Of a stretch of DNA of 64,000 nucleotides, positions 1 through 49,689 are shown piece by piece. The stretch comes from Centroscyllium fabricii (Eukaryota), in assembly GCA_051313645.2 (NCBI GenBank), contig JBNRSN020000011.1:137516001-137580000 (forward strand), written 5' to 3'. Made by a program: the position numbers and the translations under genes. Under the pieces are notes generated by a model. The model saw nothing but the letters and a program-made list of their open reading frames with translations. It was not told where the DNA came from and did not search any database. Positions within the stretch are counted from its first letter, which is position 1; every line of letters starts with the position of its first letter.

Positions 1-154
1 GACACTGGGCTTTTATCTCAGGGAGCTGAGTTTAAATCCAGCCCAGACTGACGACTGAAAAATCTCCTTTGCCGGCTGTCTGCAAGTATCCAACAAAATG
101 AAGACAGTTTTACTCTAGTTCCTTGTGCCTATATACAAAACTGCCCCTAATTTA

Positions 155-227
155 AAAAGTCACACAACACCAGTCCAACAGTTTTATTTGAAATCACAAG
201 CTTTCGGAGCGTTGCTCCTTCATCAGG
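155..227 (-). mobile_element. ~73 bp PLE pseudo-LTR insertion carrying a minimal hammerhead
   Basis: Flanked by the 13 bp direct repeat TGCCCCTAATTTA (142-154 and 228-240). The same sequence family occurs at 25076-25636, 49116-49186 and 49287-49440. Confidence 0.75.
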
Positions 228-229
228 TG
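195..229 (-). ncRNA. Minimal type I hammerhead ribozyme (PLE type)
   Basis: Minus strand reads CAC-CTGATGA-A-GGAGC-AAC-GCTCC-GAAA-GC-TT-GTG: helix I CAC/GTG, intact CUGAUGA and GAAA core, 5 bp helix II, palindromic AAGCTT in place of helix III. Confidence 0.75.
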
Positions 230-270
230 CCCCTAATTTAGCATTGATTGTCTTAAAGAGGGCATGCAGG

Positions 271-654
271 ATAGAAACATAGAAACTAGGAGCAGGAGTA
301 GGCCATTCGGCCCTTCGAGCCTGCTCCGCCATTCAATGAGATCATGGCTGATCATCCAAACCCAGCACCCCGCCCCTGCCCTCTCCCCATATCCCTCGAT
401 CCCTATCTGACATATATCCCACACTATCCCCACATATTCAATCCCCCTAACACTAAGGGTCAATTTATCCTGGCCAATCAACTTAACCCGCACATCTTTG
501 GACTGTGGGAGGAAACCGGAGCACCCGGAGGAAACCCACGCAGACACGGGGAGAATGTGCAAACTCCACACAGATAGTACCCGAGGCTGGATTTGAACCC
601 GGGTCTCCAGTGCTGTGAGACAACAATGTTAACCACTGTGCCACCATGCCACCC
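271..654 (-). mobile_element. V-SINE (HE1-like), full length
   Basis: tRNA-like head (A box TGGCACAGTGG, B box GGTTCAAATCC), V-domain CTCCCCGTGTCTGCGTGGGTTTCCTCCGGGTGCTCCGGTTTCCTCCCACAG, CR1-derived tail ending in (CTATGTTT)n. Confidence 0.9.
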
Positions 655-1719
655 ATGTGGGAAATGGGATGGCTTGTGTGGGAAATTAAAAAAATGTCAC
701 ATTGGTTCATTTGGGGATGGTCTTTTAGGGTTAAGTCATGTTGGTAGCGCAGAGTAGAGGAAACTTTCCTCTGCATCTATCTGTATTACAGCTGGCCTGG
801 GAGTACTTGATGCCGATACTGGGTGCCTGAAATGAGAAAAGTTCCATTCTCCAGCACTAACATTCCTCACCTTGAGCACAAATAGTTCAATACTTAGATC
901 AGGTGGGCATTTATTTGGAGCTAACTGTATGCTTCTCAACAAAGGGGCAATTGACCCTCATGCAAAGTTTAGTCAATGCCTTAAACAAGTTCTGGTCAAT
1001 AGTTGGTAGATTGCACCTGTTAACGTATATATAATTTCCATTTATTCATGTTATGTTAGGTTTGTATATTAGAATTAGAATACTAGCAGTAGTTGAGAAC
1101 TGCAGCACATCATAGATTGGAACAGACATTCATCTGTTTTTACAAGGTTTTGAACCAGATCTATTATCAAGAGATGCTTACTGTACAACGCAGGCAGTTA
1201 TACAAAAGTCGTGATTGATGAATATTCAAATATCAAACAGACTTGCATTGAAATAAAATGCTTAATGGGGAGCTATTTTTATATTCGCGTGTAGGTCATC
1301 TGGGTTTTCATGTGTGTCATTTTTAAGGAGCATTTATGCTGCAAAGTTAGCATCAGTGCAAAGGGATTTCAGCTTTGCATCAAACAAAATTGGAAATTTA
1401 AATCTGGAGTGAGGACCTGACCTGCCTCTGGAGTAAAGCAGAGTGAGACTCCCTGGAGGGGCTGCCTCACATTGCTTAAGGTCTGACACTGTGTGGAGTG
1501 TAAATCCAGTGCAGTGTCAAACCTGGTTTACAAAGTGCTCAGTGGGTCTGTTGTGCCCCATGGACACTTTATTAACCTAGCCAATCTTCATTTAAATGTA
1601 TGGAGGGCTGGCATTCCCCCTCCCCATGCTCTAAATATTTAAATGTTTAACTTTTGGGAGACAGCTCTGGTGTGGTTGTATTCAGGCACATGCACAGCTC
1701 TCTCCTAAACAGGACACTT

Positions 1720-3225: not shown

Positions 3226-5351
3226 ATTTTATTATTTAATAAAGAGGCATAACGGAAGATATGAATTTTCTGGTGCTCATCGTAATTCAGTTCAGTCTTG
3301 AAACCATGAGTTGGAAAGTCAGTAATAGGAATAAAATTGGTAGCTTTGATGTTTAAAATCACAAATCACTGTTTAAACAGGCTTCTAAACACCTGGAGGC
3401 TGGGGCGGGGGGACTTCGTTTTGTTTTTAAAAAGTGTCTTCACTTTATTTTCCTTGTAATATTTTGTAAGTCTGCAGTACAAAAATAGACTGCAGAAGCA
3501 ACAGTTGAAATCTCTGCAATATTATTGATGGGAATTTGCTTGGATGTGATATCCATTTGTTCAGGTGTACATCACCTTAAAACGACAAATTATCTTATGA
3601 CCTGGTAGTATTTACCAGCCTGGAGGAGTGGCCACACACAAATATATACATTTTGAATAAAAGTTCTTTGTATAAAGTTTAAATATTTAATGTTCAAAAT
3701 CCTGAAATGATACATTACTCAGTCATACTGGCCTACTTCTGGGCCAAATGACCTCCTCCTGTGCTGTATTTTTATTATTCTATAGAAGTTGCAACTGACA
3801 CTATTCTAATGTCATTAATATAAATTATGCATCCTGGAGATGATAAGACGATCGATTCCAGTAGGGGTGGGCCCATAGCAATAATACTCCCTCTAATTTG
3901 CACGAATTGGAACTAAATTTTCAATTTTGCTACAAAGGACAAAAACATTTCTAGTGTAGGAAATTGAAAAGTTTCACTTATGCAGCGGAGTATGCTCTTT
4001 TGCAATTTGGGCTGATACCCGTTATTGAGGCTGAGTAGAGATTTATTGTCCACATAACCACATTGACTGAGGATTGCTTGGTGCTGGTGTTGGGTGCCCA
4101 AAAACGGAAACTGTTTCATTTTAAGGCACTGACAAGCTCACCTTAATGAGCACACAAGACATATCATGATTGGGCAGTTATGGATATTTCCAGCACTGTA
4201 AAATAATTGTTAACATAAGGATACATTTTATGAATGAGTACTCCTGGCACAGACCCTCACCTGCCGGGAGTGCATATTGGGAAATCACGGATGCATGCCT
4301 ATGATTTCCCATTCGTAAAATGTACTCTATGGTCTTAAAAACTGACATCAGATAAGCATTTGGTATCAGGAAGGCAGTCTCATGCCACTTCTGTTTCAAA
4401 CAGTTTAACTGCAACTGGTGCAAAGGCAATTTTCTAAACTTCAATTTTAAAGTTTAAAAAGTGCCCAGCCAGTCCATTAGACTGCCCTTAAAATCAAGTT
4501 GTTAGTGAAGAATCAACAGTTCAGTTGTGTCTTTACAAGTCAGTTATATTTCAGTTTGCATCCATACAAAGCAGTTTTGGTTTCACATTGATGTGAACTG
4601 TGCAGTATAATGAAGTTAATCAGATTGTATTCTGGCAAGCTGTGTGAAGTCACTTTGGAGAGATGATCTCGCACCATTTTGGGGGATCATTGGGAACTTC
4701 TAACCTTCATTTTCAAACAGCTCAATGTTCACAAAGAACTGACTGTCCCGTTGACATTAAAACTTGAACTAGTGTTTGCACACTGTTGGACAGAGCTCTG
4801 CACGGACTCCACTTCGCCTTGCGGAAGAATGGTGCAGAGTAGGAAGAATAACTCAAACCTGTACTATAACAGTGCCATTACTAACCGTAAATACTTCACT
4901 GGCATTCAAGCACTGGCAAGCACAATGCATGTGGTAGATGTATGTGTACAGTTCCGCTTTCCCCTGATTTCAAGCTGACTTTACTTTGCAGCTGTAACAT
5001 TGAGGTGAAGAACTTTTGCTTTTTACTAAAGTTAACATTATAGTGTAAATCTGGAATCAGCATGGCCTGACTCGAGCATGTGAAGAGAAGAATCATGGAG
5101 GAACGAGTCTTATTCTGTTTCACCCCAGAGTCAGGTCAGGCCCTGATTCTGAATTAGAACACCACTTCTTCGTGTTTGTGTAGTGTTTCTATAGGTGTAG
5201 TGTCATTGCAACCTTACAGCAGTGCAGAATGAAGTGTATTAACAGTAGGTGTATTTGTAACATTCATCAGATATATTTTAGTACAATGAATATGGAAAAT
5301 AATGGATAGAAGAATCATTTGACACCAACATAGGTACCAGACCATCATATT

Positions 5352-5577
5352 GGGCCAGAAATTCTGTGCTCCGATTGGCTCCCCGCGGACCACGTGATCC
5401 CGCAGGCAGCTTCGCACTAACTGCGACGCTCAGATGCAGCGGCACAGCACACTGGCATTTCAGGAGGGCCCCGCATCGGAATTCCATGTGGGTGGAATGG
5501 AGAACGTCCGGCGCGGTCCGTAAGTGTGGGTTGGAGGCTTGCACTCGCGGGAAGCCTCCAACCCGAATTTCTGGCTG
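5352..5577. mobile_element. Short internally deleted Harbinger-like MITE
   Basis: TIRs GCCAGAAATTC / GAATTTCTGGC. Body is homologous to 46843-47055 and, inverted, to 63332-63545. Confidence 0.75.
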
Positions 5578-8084
5578 TCACATGTATATCTCTATGTACT
5601 AGCATGCAACCAACTAATTTATTACAAATGCATCCCACTATAGACTCACTATACTTGCACTAAACCACTGTATGTATTACCCATGAAACAATAAAGTATA
5701 GACTGGCATTAGCCAACCTATTCAACAGACCCTTTTCTCCAAATGTAGTTTGCTCTGGGAATTATTAAGATAGACATGAACAAATAAGAAGTCCACTATT
5801 TCTATAAACGATCCACCAGGTGCTTTTGGGCCTAGTTGTCCTATCATTTCATCTTTTTTGTCCTTCTTTAAATGGAATGTGATCTGCAAAGTGATAAACT
5901 ATAGTGCTGGTTTCACTGATTCAGATTTGAAATTGAGTTCATATTAAGAACATTTTAATTCACCATTCCTTTTTTTTATTAGTGAATCCTGGAAAAGTAC
6001 CAATATTTTCCTAAACTGTCTCTGAAAGGTACTCACCAGTCTTTTTGAATATTGCTCTTTCTGTAATTGAGATCAAGAGCAGCTGTAATGTCTCACTTAC
6101 ATGGGTGAACTCTGTCAAGTGTTAGGTTAATAGGAACAAAAAAAGCTGAGCTGGAATTTCAGAGAAGCCAGTCCACAAAGAACACTTCCATAGCTTTCTA
6201 ATGGGACAGATATACTGCACATCTTGAGTAGGTGTGAATAAGTTTTCATATCATACTGATGTAAAACAAGTGGTACAAGTGGTACAACTGTAGCGTAACG
6301 GTGCTGATTTGATGTTGTGTTTTTCTAGAGGAGTTGGTCTTCCACCATTTCAGTTTTCAATTGGTTGCAATCGAATTAAAATCAGTGCAGAACCGAATTT
6401 TGAAATGTTTTAGGTGGCCCTCTGAGCTTTAAGGAATCAGTTCCATTACATGTATTAGTTTGAAATCACTACATGCTTGATTGCACACCAGCTAGATAGA
6501 TCAGAGTTATACTGCCACTCAGCTCTGTTGCACTTTTTAAGCAATAGTAAAGCTGTTATCGAGCTCCAGAATGCCCCATCCCATCAAACGATGCACACAC
6601 ATATGAATGTTTATTCATTCATACACATATCCTGCAAAAGTAAATTGAAAGTCTGTCTGAATTTGCATAAAAAGCAGTGGATTCTATAATCAGCAACTGG
6701 ATTCTGTGAGGAGAAAGAAAATCTTTAAATTGTTTCTAGTGCTTCTGGCACCATCCAACAGCCTGCTGTATAGCTAAACTCAGTCAGGCCAGAAATATAC
6801 TGCTGCTTGCACATTGAAAAATAAATGTGAAGCCCTGATTGGAAGGAGATTTGCACCTTCTGCTTTAATACACTCAGGACTCGGTATGTCAATATTTCCA
6901 TATTGTTATTTTTGCACCCTTGAAAACTGCTTTGCATCATTGAAAAGTGGCAGTATAACTGCAAGCGTGCTTAATATGACAAAAATAAATAAATGTCTTT
7001 TCTACTTTTAATCATCTCATTGGCAATTACAGGTCGGTGAACCGACCTTTGGCTTCACTGATTAGAGAGTGGTGTGATGAGGCAGAGTAATGCTGTGCTG
7101 TTTGCCAAGTTATTTCCAAACGTGGTGTTGGTATGATATTTTTGCCTTAATTTTTTCCCCTCATTTCCTGAAGACACCAATTCATGGATGGAAGATATGG
7201 AATCATGGGTACCAGCTGCCCTCCCATATCTTATCCTTACAGCCATTTTTCATGAGTGTGTCTGGACGGTGGGTGCCTGCAGGCTATTGAACATAGTGAG
7301 GGGGAGAGAATTGCAGCTCAGTCTGATCTCATCTTTCCTGAACAACCACAAATGCGCACTTTGCGGAAGTGCAAACAGGAGCTGGAACTTTGGCTGATTT
7401 CCCCCCTCTTTAGCCCAGGGTTGCTGAGGACAGCCAACACCATGATTGCCTTTACCATGGATTGAACCTGGGACCCCCCCTGGTGTGTATAGCCCACTTT
7501 CACATTAAGTAGTGCATTTCTAACTGAGCCAGTGCATATGCTCAGTATCAACAACATAATTGCATTCTTAGGTAATTACATTGGTTTCACAGCTATATAT
7601 GTGAACCAGTTAGCTAGTTACAGAAAGCCAGCATTCAAGATATTTCCAGGTTCACCACAGAGAATGACGTACTATTACATTGTCATGGTAACATGCCTCA
7701 TTATAGGTTATCAATAGGCAGGCATCACTATAGATTGATATTAGCTCAGCATACGTGTTCCACCTTATTGTGGGCAGGTATTTAATCATCGTGTTATTCA
7801 GAGTGACTCGGGATTAAAATGTTTATTATGTTCAGTGCTAGCTATAGACTGGCGCAAGTCTAATCTGTATCAAATATGCATCTAACCATAAACTGGCATA
7901 AGTCCAATTAACCTCACTGGAAATTAGCACTAGACTGACCTCACTTCACGGAGGACCCAATGTAGACTGACATTATAGGATAAATTCACCAGTTGCACAC
8001 TCCCAGCAGGGAGCCATATTTGAAGGGAGCGCAGATCAGCAAATCCATGCTATACTGTTGTAGGCCAAGCTCTAATTTTTACAT

Positions 8085-8875
8085 AGTACCTGGAACAGAA
8101 AAACAGGTAATTCGGCCCAAATGATCAATGATTCAGAAAGACTGGTGAGCATTTATACTCCATGCAAGTCTCCTCCCACTCTAATGACCTTTGCCCACAC
8201 TCTGCCCACCTCCCTCTATCCCCTTCTCCCCCATGTACGCACCAAGTCTCCCCTTAAATGTATGAATGCTATCTGTTCCAAATTCTCACCAGTGGCTGTT
8301 TAAAGACACTTCTTCCAAATTCTATAATGGCTCTGTTGGCAACGACCTTATATTTATGCTTCCTTGTTCTGGGCCCACCCACAAGTGGAAACAATTTCTC
8401 CATATCCACCCTATTAAACCCCTTTGTAATTTAAAAATAACCTCTATCAGCTCTCCTCTTAGTCTTCTCTTTCCCAGAGCATTGATCTGATCGTTGCATC
8501 CAATTCAATTCAATTCAAATTGCTTTATTGGCATGACAAGATACATCTTATGTTGCCAAAGCACAGAAAAAGGACATATACAATTGAACATACAAATGCA
8601 GAACTAGACAATTCAGGTAACATTTTGTTGCAAATCTTCTGTGCACTTTCTCCAGTGGTTCAGTATCCTTGTTGTGGCATGGAGACCAGAACTGCACACA
8701 GTACTCCAAGTGTGGTCTCACCAAAATCCTGTGTAAATTTAACATTACCTTCCTGCTTCAGCATTCTACTCCTCTAGAAATGGTCCCCTGTACATTTGTT
8801 TGCACTCGTTGTGGCCTTATCAACTTGCGTTGCTACTTTTAACTATTTCTGTATCTGCATTCCCAGATCTTTTCT
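8085..8875 (-). mobile_element. Old CR1 fragment with a nested (GAATT)n-tailed 3' end at ~8500-8565
   Basis: ORF 8548-8745 reads [16 protein letters not shown]...LEKVHRRF. The nested piece reads, on the minus strand, CATGCCAATAAAGCAATTTGAATTGAATTG. Confidence 0.75.
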
Positions 8876-9349
8876 ACGCTGCCTCATGTAGTTTCCACTG
8901 AAGAAAGTGGTCCAATTTGCACGCAGCTCCCGCTGGGCCCAGGTGATTGGTGAATTTTACACTGTGTGTAAGGCTGCATTAACACTGTCACATGTGTGTC
9001 AATGCATCAAGGCATAAGGAGACTAGCGAGCGCGTTAATGCCCCTGAGGTGGGAGGCCTCTCTTATCCACGGGGCGCTTTCACGCAGGTTTTAAGTCTCC
9101 AGAAAGTGCCGTATAGTTCCAGTCTGATGTACACGGGCTCAATACAGGCTGGCAATAGGCGAGCCTGTTTAACAGCCCCTGGTCTCCGCTCCCTCGGTTT
9201 GAAGAGCAGTACCGAGTGATGTTTGCTTCAAAGGGTGAGAGAACAGGAAGCCCGCTCTTGCTAGAACAGTTCCATCTGATGGCAGTGGGCAGCACAACTT
9301 TCCCCACTTGCCCTGATCTCGTTTCTTTCCCCTTTCTCTCTCTCTAAAT

Positions 9350-21930: not shown

Positions 21931-22334
21931 ACATAGAAACATAGAAACTAGGAGCAGGAGTAGGCCATTCGGCCCTTCAAGCCTGCTCCGCCATTCAATG
22001 AGATCATGGCTGATCATCCAAACCCAGGAGCCCGCCCCTACCCTCTCCCCATATCCCTCGATCCCTATCGAGCCTCCATCGACACATATCCCACCCTATC
22101 CCCGTAACCCCACATATTCAATCCCCCTGACACTAAGGGTCAATTTATCCTGGCCAATCAACCTAACCCGCACATCTTTGGACTGTGGGAGGAAACCGGA
22201 GCACCCGGAGGAAACCCACGCAGACACGGGGAGAATGTGCAAACTCCACACAGATAGTACCCGAGGCTGGATTTGAACTCGGGTCTCTAGTGCTGTAAGG
22301 CAACAGTGCTAACCACTGTGCCACCGCGCCGCCC
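21931..22334 (-). mobile_element. V-SINE, full length
   Basis: Near-identical to 271-654. Confidence 0.9.
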
Positions 22335-22539
22335 TACGAACAAAGAGGAATGATATAAATAGTAATTTGATCTTTTCATTGCAGGTGCGAAGTTACACAT
22401 TTATAGAAATGTATAAAATTCCAGGTACTGTGGCGTTTGTAATACCAACACATGTGGGTGCACTGTACCCGTCCGTGTTCTGTGTCTACCGCAGCAATGC
22501 GTTTCTCCGTGTGTACAGTACTGTAAATATGCAAATTGA

Positions 22540-24128: not shown

Positions 24129-24506
24129 ATAGAAACATAGAAGATAGGAGCAGGAGTAGGCCATTCGGCCCTTCAAGGCTGCTCCGCCATTCAATGGGAT
24201 CATGGCTGATCATCCAAACCCAGGACCCTGTCCCTGTCCCTGCCCCCTCCCCATATCCCTCGATCCCTATCGAGCCTGCATCGACACCCTATCCCCGTAA
24301 CCCCACATATTTAATCCCCCTAACACTAAGGGTCAATTTATCCTGGCCAATCAACCTAACCCGCACATCTTTGGACTGTGGGAGGAAACCGGAGCACCCG
24401 GAGGAAACCCACGCAGACACGGGGAGAATGTGCAAACTCCACACAGATAGTCACCCGAGGCCGGATTTGAGACAGCCGTGCTAACCACTGTGCCACCGTG
24501 CCGCCC
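24129..24506 (-). mobile_element. V-SINE with small internal deletions
   Basis: Same family; GCCCTTTC duplicated at 24121 and 24503. Confidence 0.9.
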
Positions 24507-25159
24507 TTTCTTTACCTATTGCTTTCTGACTTTGCCTATATTCATCTCTCTCTATTCTTGCTTCTCTTTCCTGTTTATTTTTCTCTTTCTATTTCGTTTT
24601 TTAAAAATTCTTCCCTCTCTCCATTCGACACCCATTCCTTTAGAAGATGTTTATACATGCCGCTTTCATTTCTAACAGCGAGTCTGCTTAAACTCCCCCA
24701 CAGCTGACGATATCACCCGGAAGAAGCAGGAACAAAACCGGCTTCAGGAATGTCTGGGAATTTAAGCATAATTTCCAAGAACCAACAAAAGAAAGTTAAA
24801 ACCTTTCATTTCAGCCGCCGGAGCTCATCAAAACTTTAGGTGAACTTTATTTACTTAACATGAATTTAGTTTGTGTTATACTTACTTCGCCAAATTAGTT
24901 CGAGTGCAGATGACACTAAAGAAAAAAATGGATTTCTTTCCCCATAAACCCTAATCCGTTAAAAAGTTATTCATTGTGCCGATTCTTATTCTGAGACGAT
25001 TCCTTAAACAATGAGCAATGGCAGGTCTTCAAGGTGGAGCTAGTTCGGGTGCAAACCAAGCCTATTCCCATAAGGCGGAGGTGCCGGTGTTGGACTGGGG
25101 TGCACAAATGCAAGAAGTCACACAACACCGGGTTATAGTCCAACAATTGTATTTGAAAT

Positions 25160-25194
25160 CACAAGCTTTCGGAGCACTGCTCCTTCCTCAGGTG
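25160..25194 (-). ncRNA. Minimal hammerhead ribozyme
   Basis: CAC-CTGAGGA-A-GGAGC-AGT-GCTCC-GAAA-GC-TT-GTG; CUGANGA core intact. Confidence 0.72.
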
Positions 25195-25213
25195 TTTTTC
25201 TATAACCTGGTGT

Positions 25214-25615
25214 TAGAAACATAGAAGCTAGGAGCAGGAGTAGGCCATTCGGCCCTTCGAGCCTGCTCCACCATTCAATGAGATCATGGCTGATCATCCA
25301 ATCCCAGCACCCTGCCCCTGCCTTGTCCCCACATCCCTCGATCCCTATCGAGCCTGCACCGACACATATCCACCCTATCGCCGTAACCCCACATATTTAA
25401 TCCCCCTAACACTAAGGGTCAATTTATCCTGGCCAATCAACCTAACCCGCACATCTTTGGACTGTGGGAGGAAACCGGAGCACCCGGAGGAAACCCACGC
25501 AGACACGGGGAGAATGTGCAAACTCCACACAGATAGTCACCCGAGGCTGGATTTGAACCCGGGTCTCCAGTGCTGCAAGGCAACAGTGCTAACCACTATG
25601 CCACCGTGCCGCCCT
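25214..25615 (-). mobile_element. V-SINE, full length
   Basis: Same family; short GTGT(T) duplication at the ends. Confidence 0.9.
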
Positions 25616-25638
25616 CGTGTTGTGTGACTTCTTGCATT

Positions 25639-25888
25639 ATAGAAACATAGAAACATAGAAACATAGAAGATAGGAGCAGGAGCAGGCCATTCGGCCCTTC
25701 GAGCCTGCTCCGCCATTCAATGAGATCATGGCTGATCATCCAAACCCAGTACCCCGCCCCTGCCTTGTCCACACATCCCTATCGAGCCTGCACCGACACA
25801 CATCCCACCCTATCCCCGTAACCCCACATATTCAATCCCCCTAACACTAAGGGTCAATTTATCATGGCCAATCAACCAACCCGCACAT
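25639..25888 (-). mobile_element. V-SINE, 5'-truncated
   Basis: Tail and 3' half only; stops at CCGCACAT. Confidence 0.9.
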
Positions 25889-48280: not shown

Positions 48281-49151
48281 TATCTACACTTGAGAAGGCA
48301 GGAATGATGAGTAGTAGCACATAATCCTGAAAAAAATTAAACTTTGGTTATAGTTATATAGTCACAGTTAGCATGTTAATAACAGGACAAATGGAAATTA
48401 GTACACTTGCTAATATTCAAGTTATTTTTATGACATTATTATATTTTCCATACAATAATGATATTCAAATTGAAGTTATAAAAAGAATACCTGAGCATCA
48501 GCTGCATTTGTCTGATGTGCCAAAACACAGGACTTGGCTACTGCTGCCAGTTCATGCGTAGTTGGCCACTTCGAACTTACAAACCTGAATTGTCAAAAAC
48601 ATGTCTTTCTTGAGTGTCACTTCTAAAAAATTGACAGTTTTTTGAATGCTTGTAATTAGCCCATGGGAACAGTAAGACTGAAAAGTCTCATCTGTTATTG
48701 GTCCACGTTAACCACTCCCATTGATCCCTTGAGTGTCATTTTGAACATTGGCATTTTTTTCTGAGCACTATGATTGGTCATGGGAACAACCAAGCGATTT
48801 AACAATTTGCATTGCCATGGATAACATCATAAAGCAGCTTCAAAGCAACTGTTATTTCAGTGGCACTACATTTCCAGGTTTCCTGTTTTTACACTCACAA
48901 TGCACTCGAGTAACTTCAACTGAGAATTATAAGGTGCAGCTGCTGCCAGGATCAGCTGAGACAGACAGAGTTTGCAAACCTCAAGTGTGTTGAGAGTTTC
49001 TGCAGTGACTTCTGCAGCTGAGAAAGACTTTTCCCTGCGATTTTCCTGGGGTATTTTGCCTACACAGATTTGCTTCTGAGATTGTAAATCAATTCAATAC
49101 ACAACCTGGAATAATAACACCAGGTTATAGTCCAACAGTTTTATTTGAAAT

Positions 49152-49186
49152 CACAAGCTTTCGGAGTGCTGCTCCTTCCTCAGGTG
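49152..49186 (-). ncRNA. Minimal hammerhead ribozyme within PLE fragment 49116-49186
   Basis: TCAC-CTGAGGA-A-GGAG-CAGCA-CTCC-GAAA-GC-TT-GTGA. Confidence 0.7.
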
Positions 49187-49286
49187 AAAGAGAAGTTAAT
49201 TTAAACACAGCACAGATAGCAATCTAATCTCTCCAACATCACACTTCAGCAGACACAGAGCAGCCAAAGGTGTTTTAACATATTTT

Positions 49287-49440
49287 GATGTGGAGGTGCT
49301 GGTGTTGGACTGGAGTGGACAAATGCAAGAAGTCACACAACACCAGGTTGTGATTTAAAATAAAACTGTTGGACTATAACCATCTTGTGATTTAAAATAA
49401 AACTGTTGGACTATAACCTGGTGTTGTGTGACTTCTCGCA
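49287..49440. mobile_element. PLE pseudo-LTR insertion: one inverted and two tandem partial copies
   Basis: 13 bp duplication TTTAACATATTTT at 49274-49286 and 49441-49453. TTGTGATTTAAAATAAAACTGTTGGACTATAACC occurs twice. Confidence 0.75.
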
Positions 49441-49689
49441 TTTAACATATTTTAACATATTCATCAGATCATGAGATCAATGAGGTACAGTCACAAAGGG
49501 TCAAATGTTGCAGTCTTGTCTCTGTGTAAAAACACACAGAATGATTTTTTTTTTAAAAGGAGATTTTCCTTACTGGAGAACTCCGCAACGAACAAGACAA
49601 AGATGACTCGAGTCTGGATGACTCTACGTCAGGCGGGGTCACATGTAGCGTGACTTGAAGCCAATATCACGGTTGAGGCCCAGGCGTGT

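Follow-up and report, generated by a model that had tools for sequence, protein, structure and literature searches.

Short hammerhead-bearing insertions in the Centroscyllium fabricii genome and their relation to a Penelope-like element

Minimal hammerhead ribozymes in the repeats of Penelope elements, together with dispersed truncated copies, were described in 2014, and the sequences reported here are of this known kind. According to the accessible parts of that report (Cervera and De la Pena 2014, PMC4209133), the motifs in the pLTRs of metazoan Penelope-like elements are of type I, have no helix III in the monomer and have a palindromic core end; they carry an extra base between positions 9 and 10.1 and a G10.1–C11.1 pair, and they mostly occur as dispersed single motifs from truncated elements. 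All these traits are shared by the motifs of Centroscyllium fabricii. The copy number is far higher here, as the hammerhead pattern has at least 70,245 exact matches in the 7.2-Gb genome (reversed control: 0), compared to 4,000–9,000 for coelacanth and Xenopus. In addition, neither end mapping nor an upstream TATA box appears in the accessible parts of that study, whereas both are present here. The supplements of this study and of a 2026 preprint on retrozymes (see below) may list shark motifs.

The element Poseidon PAc from Anolis (Frangieh et al. 2024, PMC11167929, seen in part) has, like ours, two 3′ ends 30–40 nt apart, referred to as the tail, and no ends at the hammerhead cut. In that system the main template is unprocessed RNA with no reads at the cut; an uncut RNA would also be the template of our element. 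The anole protein requires ORF sequence downstream of the reverse transcriptase (RT) start site. Both elements differ in their organization, as in PAc the ORF begins within the hammerhead and the RT starts on coding sequence, whereas here the ribozyme belongs wholly to the 5′UTR and the tail extends as far as the start codon. Moreover, the protein described below has a cysteine linker of the Neptune/Nematis type, unlike PAc.

As far as the accessible part of the report goes, the Penelope transcript of Drosophila virilis begins within the pLTR, a short distance upstream of the hammerhead (Schostak et al. 2008, PMC2377424), as we propose here. That element uses a TATA-less internal promoter and has a 75-nt intron ending at helix I. 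In contrast, our element has a TATA consensus upstream and lacks both an AG acceptor at position −4 and a shared upstream exon. Finally, non-LTR retrozymes (PMC7229834; Li et al. 2026, bioRxiv 10.64898/2026.07.22.740005; both seen in part) share with our sequences the type I hammerhead, the short non-coding copies and a link to Penelope. They form head-to-tail tandem repeats and circular RNA, whereas our copies are dispersed stubs, solo or inverted, that derive from a coding element.

Three copies in the window and the element they derive from

The window, that is the whole stretch of 64,000 nucleotides that was analysed, contains three copies with a hammerhead motif. The element lies on the minus strand of the window, and its unit is numbered from the first C of helix I (+1, window position 229). 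The copies have the following parts.

142..154, no strand: target-site duplication, left copy, 13 bp, exact 13-mer identity
228..240, no strand: target-site duplication, right copy, 13 bp, its last two letters doubling as the start of helix I
155..227, minus strand: solo 73-bp Penelope end-piece, 5′ end at unit +1 to +3, 3′ end near +83
195..229, minus strand: minimal hammerhead motif, unit +1 at 229, predicted cut between 198 and 197
25077..25194, minus strand: copy 2, arm with the hammerhead and most of the tail, unit +1 to +118
25200..25638, plus strand: copy 2, inverted second arm, ∼+57 to +90
49116..49680, minus strand: copy 3, 5′-truncated Penelope copy with ORF end, 3′UTR, and hammerhead (49152–49186)
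49286..49443, no strand: second short insertion, inverted, of the same Penelope family, nested in the UTR of copy 3

The initial annotation had described a 73-bp insert within a 13-bp duplication, and this is confirmed: the identical 13-mers at 142–154 and 228–240 are the only two occurrences in the whole window, and helix I begins within the duplication, which contains its first two letters. The insert consists of the hammerhead and ∼45 nt of 5′UTR, has a 7-nt deletion and is devoid of the tail. The three motifs named in that annotation were likewise recovered, since a window scan with the 13-letter core pattern yields exact matches at 214–226, 25179–25191, and 49171–49183; the remaining 10 of the 13 matches have one or two mismatches and are chance-like (shuffle mean 4.8). 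However, the description of the units as little more than a hammerhead does not hold, as 50–90 nt of conserved sequence follow downstream in each of the three copies. The statement that homology stops at helix I is true only when the three are compared with one another; it fails against other genomic copies because copy 3 extends over 49116–49680, across the 3′UTR and into the ORF end. We read the second arm of copy 2 as split by a high-copy SINE-like repeat at ∼25214–25612, and the arms of the insertion nested in copy 3 lack the 5′ half of the hammerhead.

This SINE-like composite repeat has at least a dozen copies in the window (270–655, 21933–22335, 24129–24507, 25214–25888, and others) and often adjoins or interrupts Penelope stubs. 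In the 190 kb beside the window (L062–L080) ∼13 hammerhead-bearing copies are found, one per 15 kb. This density is far above the expectation from exact matches, and the true total may be several hundred thousand.

The ribozyme-shaped insertions are short end-pieces of an autonomous Penelope-like element with an ORF for an RT and a GIY-YIG-type endonuclease. The unit, which comprises the hammerhead (+1 to +35) and then ∼90 nt of 5′UTR, is found both 5′ and 3′ of this ORF. Most of the 30 best matches extend upstream into a UTR of 250–390 nt and several reach the ORF end. The layout is complete in the copy L131, with unit, start codon at +124, RT, endonuclease region, UTR, and unit. Among 28 loci selected by their ORF, 10 have an upstream repeat including the whole hammerhead, one of the ten being the source copy of the query, and 9 of these reach the TATA region as judged by eye. 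None of the eight long copies fetched has an unbroken full ORF. The element shows a partial tandem pLTR, inverted 5′-truncated copies and the 30–40 nt tail, all of which are listed as features of endonuclease-containing Penelope elements in the accessible part of PMC8557442.

The RT was matched to RVT_1 with an E-value of 8e-7, just below the curated cut-off. Sharks provide the nearest named proteins (89% and 82%); the relatives have RVT_1, and some also GIY-YIG. The element's own ORF gave no Pfam match to PF01541 (GIY-YIG); its C-terminal part has a GIY-YIG-like motif recognizable by eye and is 38% identical over 338 amino acids to a turtle protein (P0027) that passes the Pfam GIY-YIG model. 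Between RT and endonuclease a CX4CxxC linker is present at residue 211 of the L134 ORF, in line with the Neptune criterion CX2-5CxxC. In PMC8557442, as far as accessible, this type of linker is assigned to both Neptune and Nematis, and by this trait our element may belong to one of these two clades.

Structure and conservation of the hammerhead motif

In the motif of the 73-bp insert the minus strand reads in order CAC (5′ strand of helix I), CUGA-N-GA, an extra A, a helix II of 5 bp, GAAA, GC, UU, and GUG. The minimal hammerhead of Penelope type is thus present with its core (CUGAnGA/GAAA/UH) and helices I and II. CUGA occupies +4 to +7, the strands of helix II +12 to +16 and +20 to +24, and GAAA +25 to +28. 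By standard hammerhead numbering we take the cut to lie between +32 and +33. Substitutions among the three window motifs fall, as initially annotated, at N7 and in or next to the helix II loop, including one closing pair of helix II which is broken in copy 3.

An Rfam search returned nothing at the gathering score, and the folds of the three 43-nt monomers are not more stable than those of shuffled sequences (z −0.08 to −0.93); both results are expected from the small size of the motif. Folding energies on their own give the motif no support. The proposed palindrome for a shared helix III is present as AGCU at 15.1–16.1 and would allow pairing in a dimer. By nearest-neighbour energies the catalytic dimer fold (−12.5 kcal/mol) is not the favoured one (best dimer fold −22.5 kcal/mol), in keeping with the accessible parts of PMC4209133 and PMC11167929, where activity is reported to be low or to depend on help from a protein.

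The covariation check suggested for helix II turned out positive: across 12 rows, namely the three window copies and 9 of 17 metagenome loci, both sides change in four of the five pairs and none of 500 shuffles reaches the score. The test is partly circular because pairing guided the choice of rows and the search pattern itself imposed the core. Inside the genome, the observed changes concern only the loop, N7, and wobble pairs. Between subfamilies the motif is ∼89% identical and the 60 nt upstream of helix I ∼62%, the latter value being biased low, as the clustering itself used this upstream sequence. The core deteriorates once a copy has been inserted, with the G at +25 replaced by A in 6 of 54 copies. 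The hammerhead is conserved across subfamilies and would probably cleave weakly, as a dimer or with the aid of a protein. The inserted stubs themselves are probably dead and decay neutrally.

Where the copies end

For end mapping we used a 28-nt pattern downstream of the hammerhead, which has 107,760 exact matches in the genome (reversed control: 0). The sample comprises the first 100 listed matches, which stem from one contig and have +51 to +78 intact by construction. In this sample the 3′ ends fall at +82 to +94 in 54 copies, at +124 to +135 in 43 and elsewhere in 3. The two main sites (∼+89 and ∼+125) are ∼35 nt apart and thus correspond to the Penelope tail, which the accessible part of PMC11167929 links to two internal RT start sites.

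The 5′ ends of the same 100 copies are concentrated around helix I: 31 lie in −9 to +20 (0.014 per nt at risk) and 35 in −10 to −350 (0.003 per nt), a ∼4.5-fold enrichment (p 6e-9). Only one lies at +25 to +35, and 50 of the copies reach −40. Of the 36 ends in −10 to +22, 25 are inversion junctions, 10 join host sequence and one is direct. Target duplications of 10–14 nt with at most one mismatch flank 9 of 30 host-flanked copies. The initial annotation had called for a map of ends and duplications; the 5′ ends peak at −4 and not at the cut.

To resolve single bases, we searched with patterns in which one site may hold any letter except that of the element, so that copies which end or are mutated there are collected; 100 listed rows per pattern were classed manually, and a script gave the same result for the first 30 rows at −4. 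At the predicted cut 47 junctions per 100 listed of 1,881 matches correspond to ∼880 copies, and one base further 24 per 100 listed of 3,287 correspond to ∼790 copies. Each is ∼1% of copies when the 107,760 downstream-pattern matches serve as a rough denominator. Cut-defined 5′ ends were rejected on this basis. The initial annotation had expected a ribozyme-defined boundary, which is not found, and the predicted cut lies 32 nt inside the 5′ edge of helix I. At −4 there are 70 junctions per 100 listed of 3,559, or ∼8% of ∼37,900 copies at risk in CACTT-type subfamilies, and at −5 ∼12 per 100 listed of 4,098. The peak is thus sharp to a single base, with ∼3,200 copies at −4 against at most ∼900 at −5. 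In a separately sampled lineage with 3,576 exact matches, 13 of 30 copies end in −7 to −1, none in −8 to −33, and 8 are longer. Accordingly, the ribozyme cut is not what sets the ends; for a large minority of copies a site just upstream of helix I does.

These counts bear directly on a retrozyme model, that is a non-autonomous family whose RNA is excised by the hammerhead, circularised and inserted with ends set by the ribozyme. In its favour, the motif is a genuine minimal hammerhead whose helix II covaries across families, and vertebrate retrozymes have been linked to Penelope repeats (bioRxiv 10.64898/2026.07.22.740005, accessible part). The full-length copy at L131:2530, a single case, has its 5′ end at +28 to +31, a few bases from the predicted cut. 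Nevertheless, there is no excess of ends at the cut, and the hammerhead unit belongs to elements with an RT and endonuclease ORF, whereas retrozymes lack coding capacity. Instead of tandem monomers, the 13 pairs within 1 kb comprise 12 inverted (head-to-head) and one direct by hand count, and tandem arrays are absent among the first 100 listed hammerhead matches from the start of one contig. At the DNA level the retrozyme model is largely refuted, and we consider it very improbable overall. From the initial proposal of an abundant retrozyme-like family mobilised by a Penelope RT, the abundance, the insertion by such an RT and the excess of ends near helix I stand, but a separate non-autonomous family does not. 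The ∼100,000 countable copies represent a DNA-level test of the idea that hammerhead cleavage defines the Penelope template, and the lack of a boundary defined by the cut agrees with the anole in vitro work.

A putative transcription start upstream of the ribozyme

A TATAWAW sequence starts at −32 to −36 in 27 of 47 long copies and in 7 of 12 upstream clusters. It is missing in the other five clusters, which also yield short copies as judged by eye, and this speaks against a start at −4, as does the TATA-less promoter of the D. virilis element. Position −4 is an A within a pyrimidine-rich, initiator-like context. A metagenome scan with the same core gave 40 loci, 17 of which have both helices paired and fall into 7 families by eye. 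TATAWAW is present at −33 to −37 in 13 of the 16 both-helix loci with upstream sequence (4 of 6 families) versus 0 of 23 others; only 2 of the 17 paired loci have a Penelope-like ORF upstream. Contigs from sequencing runs, of which the two best sources may be DNA, show a depth that increases toward the 3′ end of the element and is silent on expression and starts.

An untemplated G is a mark of cap copying in LINE-1 and SVA according to the accessible part of PMC4859970. At −4 the letter before the junction is G in 24 of 40 junctions without a partner-arm explanation (28% expected, p 2e-5). Compared to controls the signal is weak: G precedes 18 of 28 junctions at −4, and three control positions together give 18 of 42 (p 0.065). 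Among six host-flanked G cases three are explained by the duplication, one is clearly untemplated and two are unclear. Thus, the evidence for cap copying is suggestive only. A second start at +2 was also considered and rejected, as G in 21 of 51 free junctions is weak. Splicing onto helix I, known from D. virilis, was likewise rejected, since 30 copies share no upstream exon and there is no AG at −4.

Ordinary 5′ truncation would explain the excess at helix I without any start, by pausing of the RT and microhomology-guided joining of arms in the self-complementary hammerhead. It is true that the zone of excess is broad (−9 to +20, ∼30 nt), that inversion junctions make up the majority of its ends and that microhomology could shape them. 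The partner arm explains the junction letter in 28 of 70 junctions at −4 (hand tally), and the over-representation of G at the control positions also fits. However, with pausing one would expect ends at the 3′ base of the stems (+25 to +35), where only the single end mentioned above is found. Furthermore, the wall of ends at −4 lies in an unpaired pyrimidine stretch, is sharp to a single base and is placed 30 nt below the TATA box with conserved spacing. We therefore regard truncation without a start as rather unlikely.

We suggest that the stubs are end-pieces of the autonomous Penelope element and that the shortest result from an RT start within the repeat, near the 5′ end of the mRNA, followed by run-off at a probable transcription start at −4, a reading to which we assign a probability of about 0.6. 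RNA polymerase II would start at −4, ∼30 nt downstream of the TATA-consensus box. The sites at +89 and +125 would correspond to the pair of internal RT start sites described for the anole Penelope, and in an mRNA from −4 they would lie ∼95 and ∼130 nt behind the 5′ end and upstream of ORF sequence. Initiation at these sites would give a run-off cDNA with little beyond hammerhead and UTR, and two such cDNAs, one per nicked strand, could be joined head-to-head. The copies have variable 5′ ends, are often head-to-head and in some cases are flanked by duplications of 10–14 bp. The template of the short copies would be an uncut, probably capped RNA, and the long truncated copies may derive from an RT start in the downstream repeat of a read-through RNA.

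A related possibility is that short copies are mobilised in trans from solo repeats which have kept the promoter and give an ORF-less RNA from −4, so that part of the population would be a SINE-like non-autonomous offshoot. Half of the 100 sampled copies reach −40 and could keep the TATA region, and in the lineage with 3,576 matches 73% are short (22 of 30) and none of the 30 reaches the ORF end in direct orientation. On the other hand, 8 of these 30 extend to −34 to −282 and one lies beside an inverted ORF end. The commonest unit variants occur in short and long copies alike, in a pool enriched for short copies. One variant that was short in 5 of 5 cases from this biased pool had been considered as a short-only subfamily and was rejected, as 8 of 30 fresh copies are long. 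In addition, the RNA of the anole element must contain part of the ORF beyond the site where the RT starts, and solo copies are without such sequence. We consider an offshoot of this type improbable.

If −4 is a capped start, ribozyme-sized stubs filling genomes would be explained without a separate retrozyme family. Removal of the capped ∼36-nt leader would then be a testable role for a poorly active ribozyme. More tentatively, and with somewhat less than even odds in our view, the TATA box may place the hammerhead so that it is transcribed first, here and in related hammerhead families of other animals; because the RT starts internally, every mRNA from that start would be turned into a ∼95- or 130-nt run-off cDNA resembling a strong-stop product, inserted by the tens of thousands, the ribozyme would act as a self-decapping switch and the genome would preserve a fossil map of start sites. 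The enrichment of 5′ ends around helix I, with its sharp peak at −4, is the one result that goes beyond the known picture of Penelope hammerheads. In the titles and abstract openings of the non-subscription papers searched, no report was found of a Penelope-like hammerhead together with a TATA box and a transcription start, or of run-off to such a start.

Another repeated hammerhead-like family is present in the metagenomes (L271, L279, L280, L282, L284, L306), with a 5-bp helix II in four of the six loci, a different register of helix I and no TATA box. A close relative of the shark element is found on the metagenome contig Ga0075479_10080686 (L300), which has the hammerhead, a TATA box at −36, the shared downstream motif and an upstream ORF piece with 64% identity to the shark protein P0001. 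It is a possible lead to horizontal transfer.

What had looked like a subfamily with a changed helix I was rejected, as it is one stub captured by a DNA transposon. This ∼865-bp element (L258–L270, for example, L260:2928–3796) has TA flanks and terminal inverted repeats beginning CAGGTACAC, and is presumably a Tc1/mariner-like MITE. It carries and has amplified a single Penelope stub (+4 to +125) which has lost the 5′ strand of helix I. As 14 of 100 listed rows stem from this element, it has perhaps several hundred copies.
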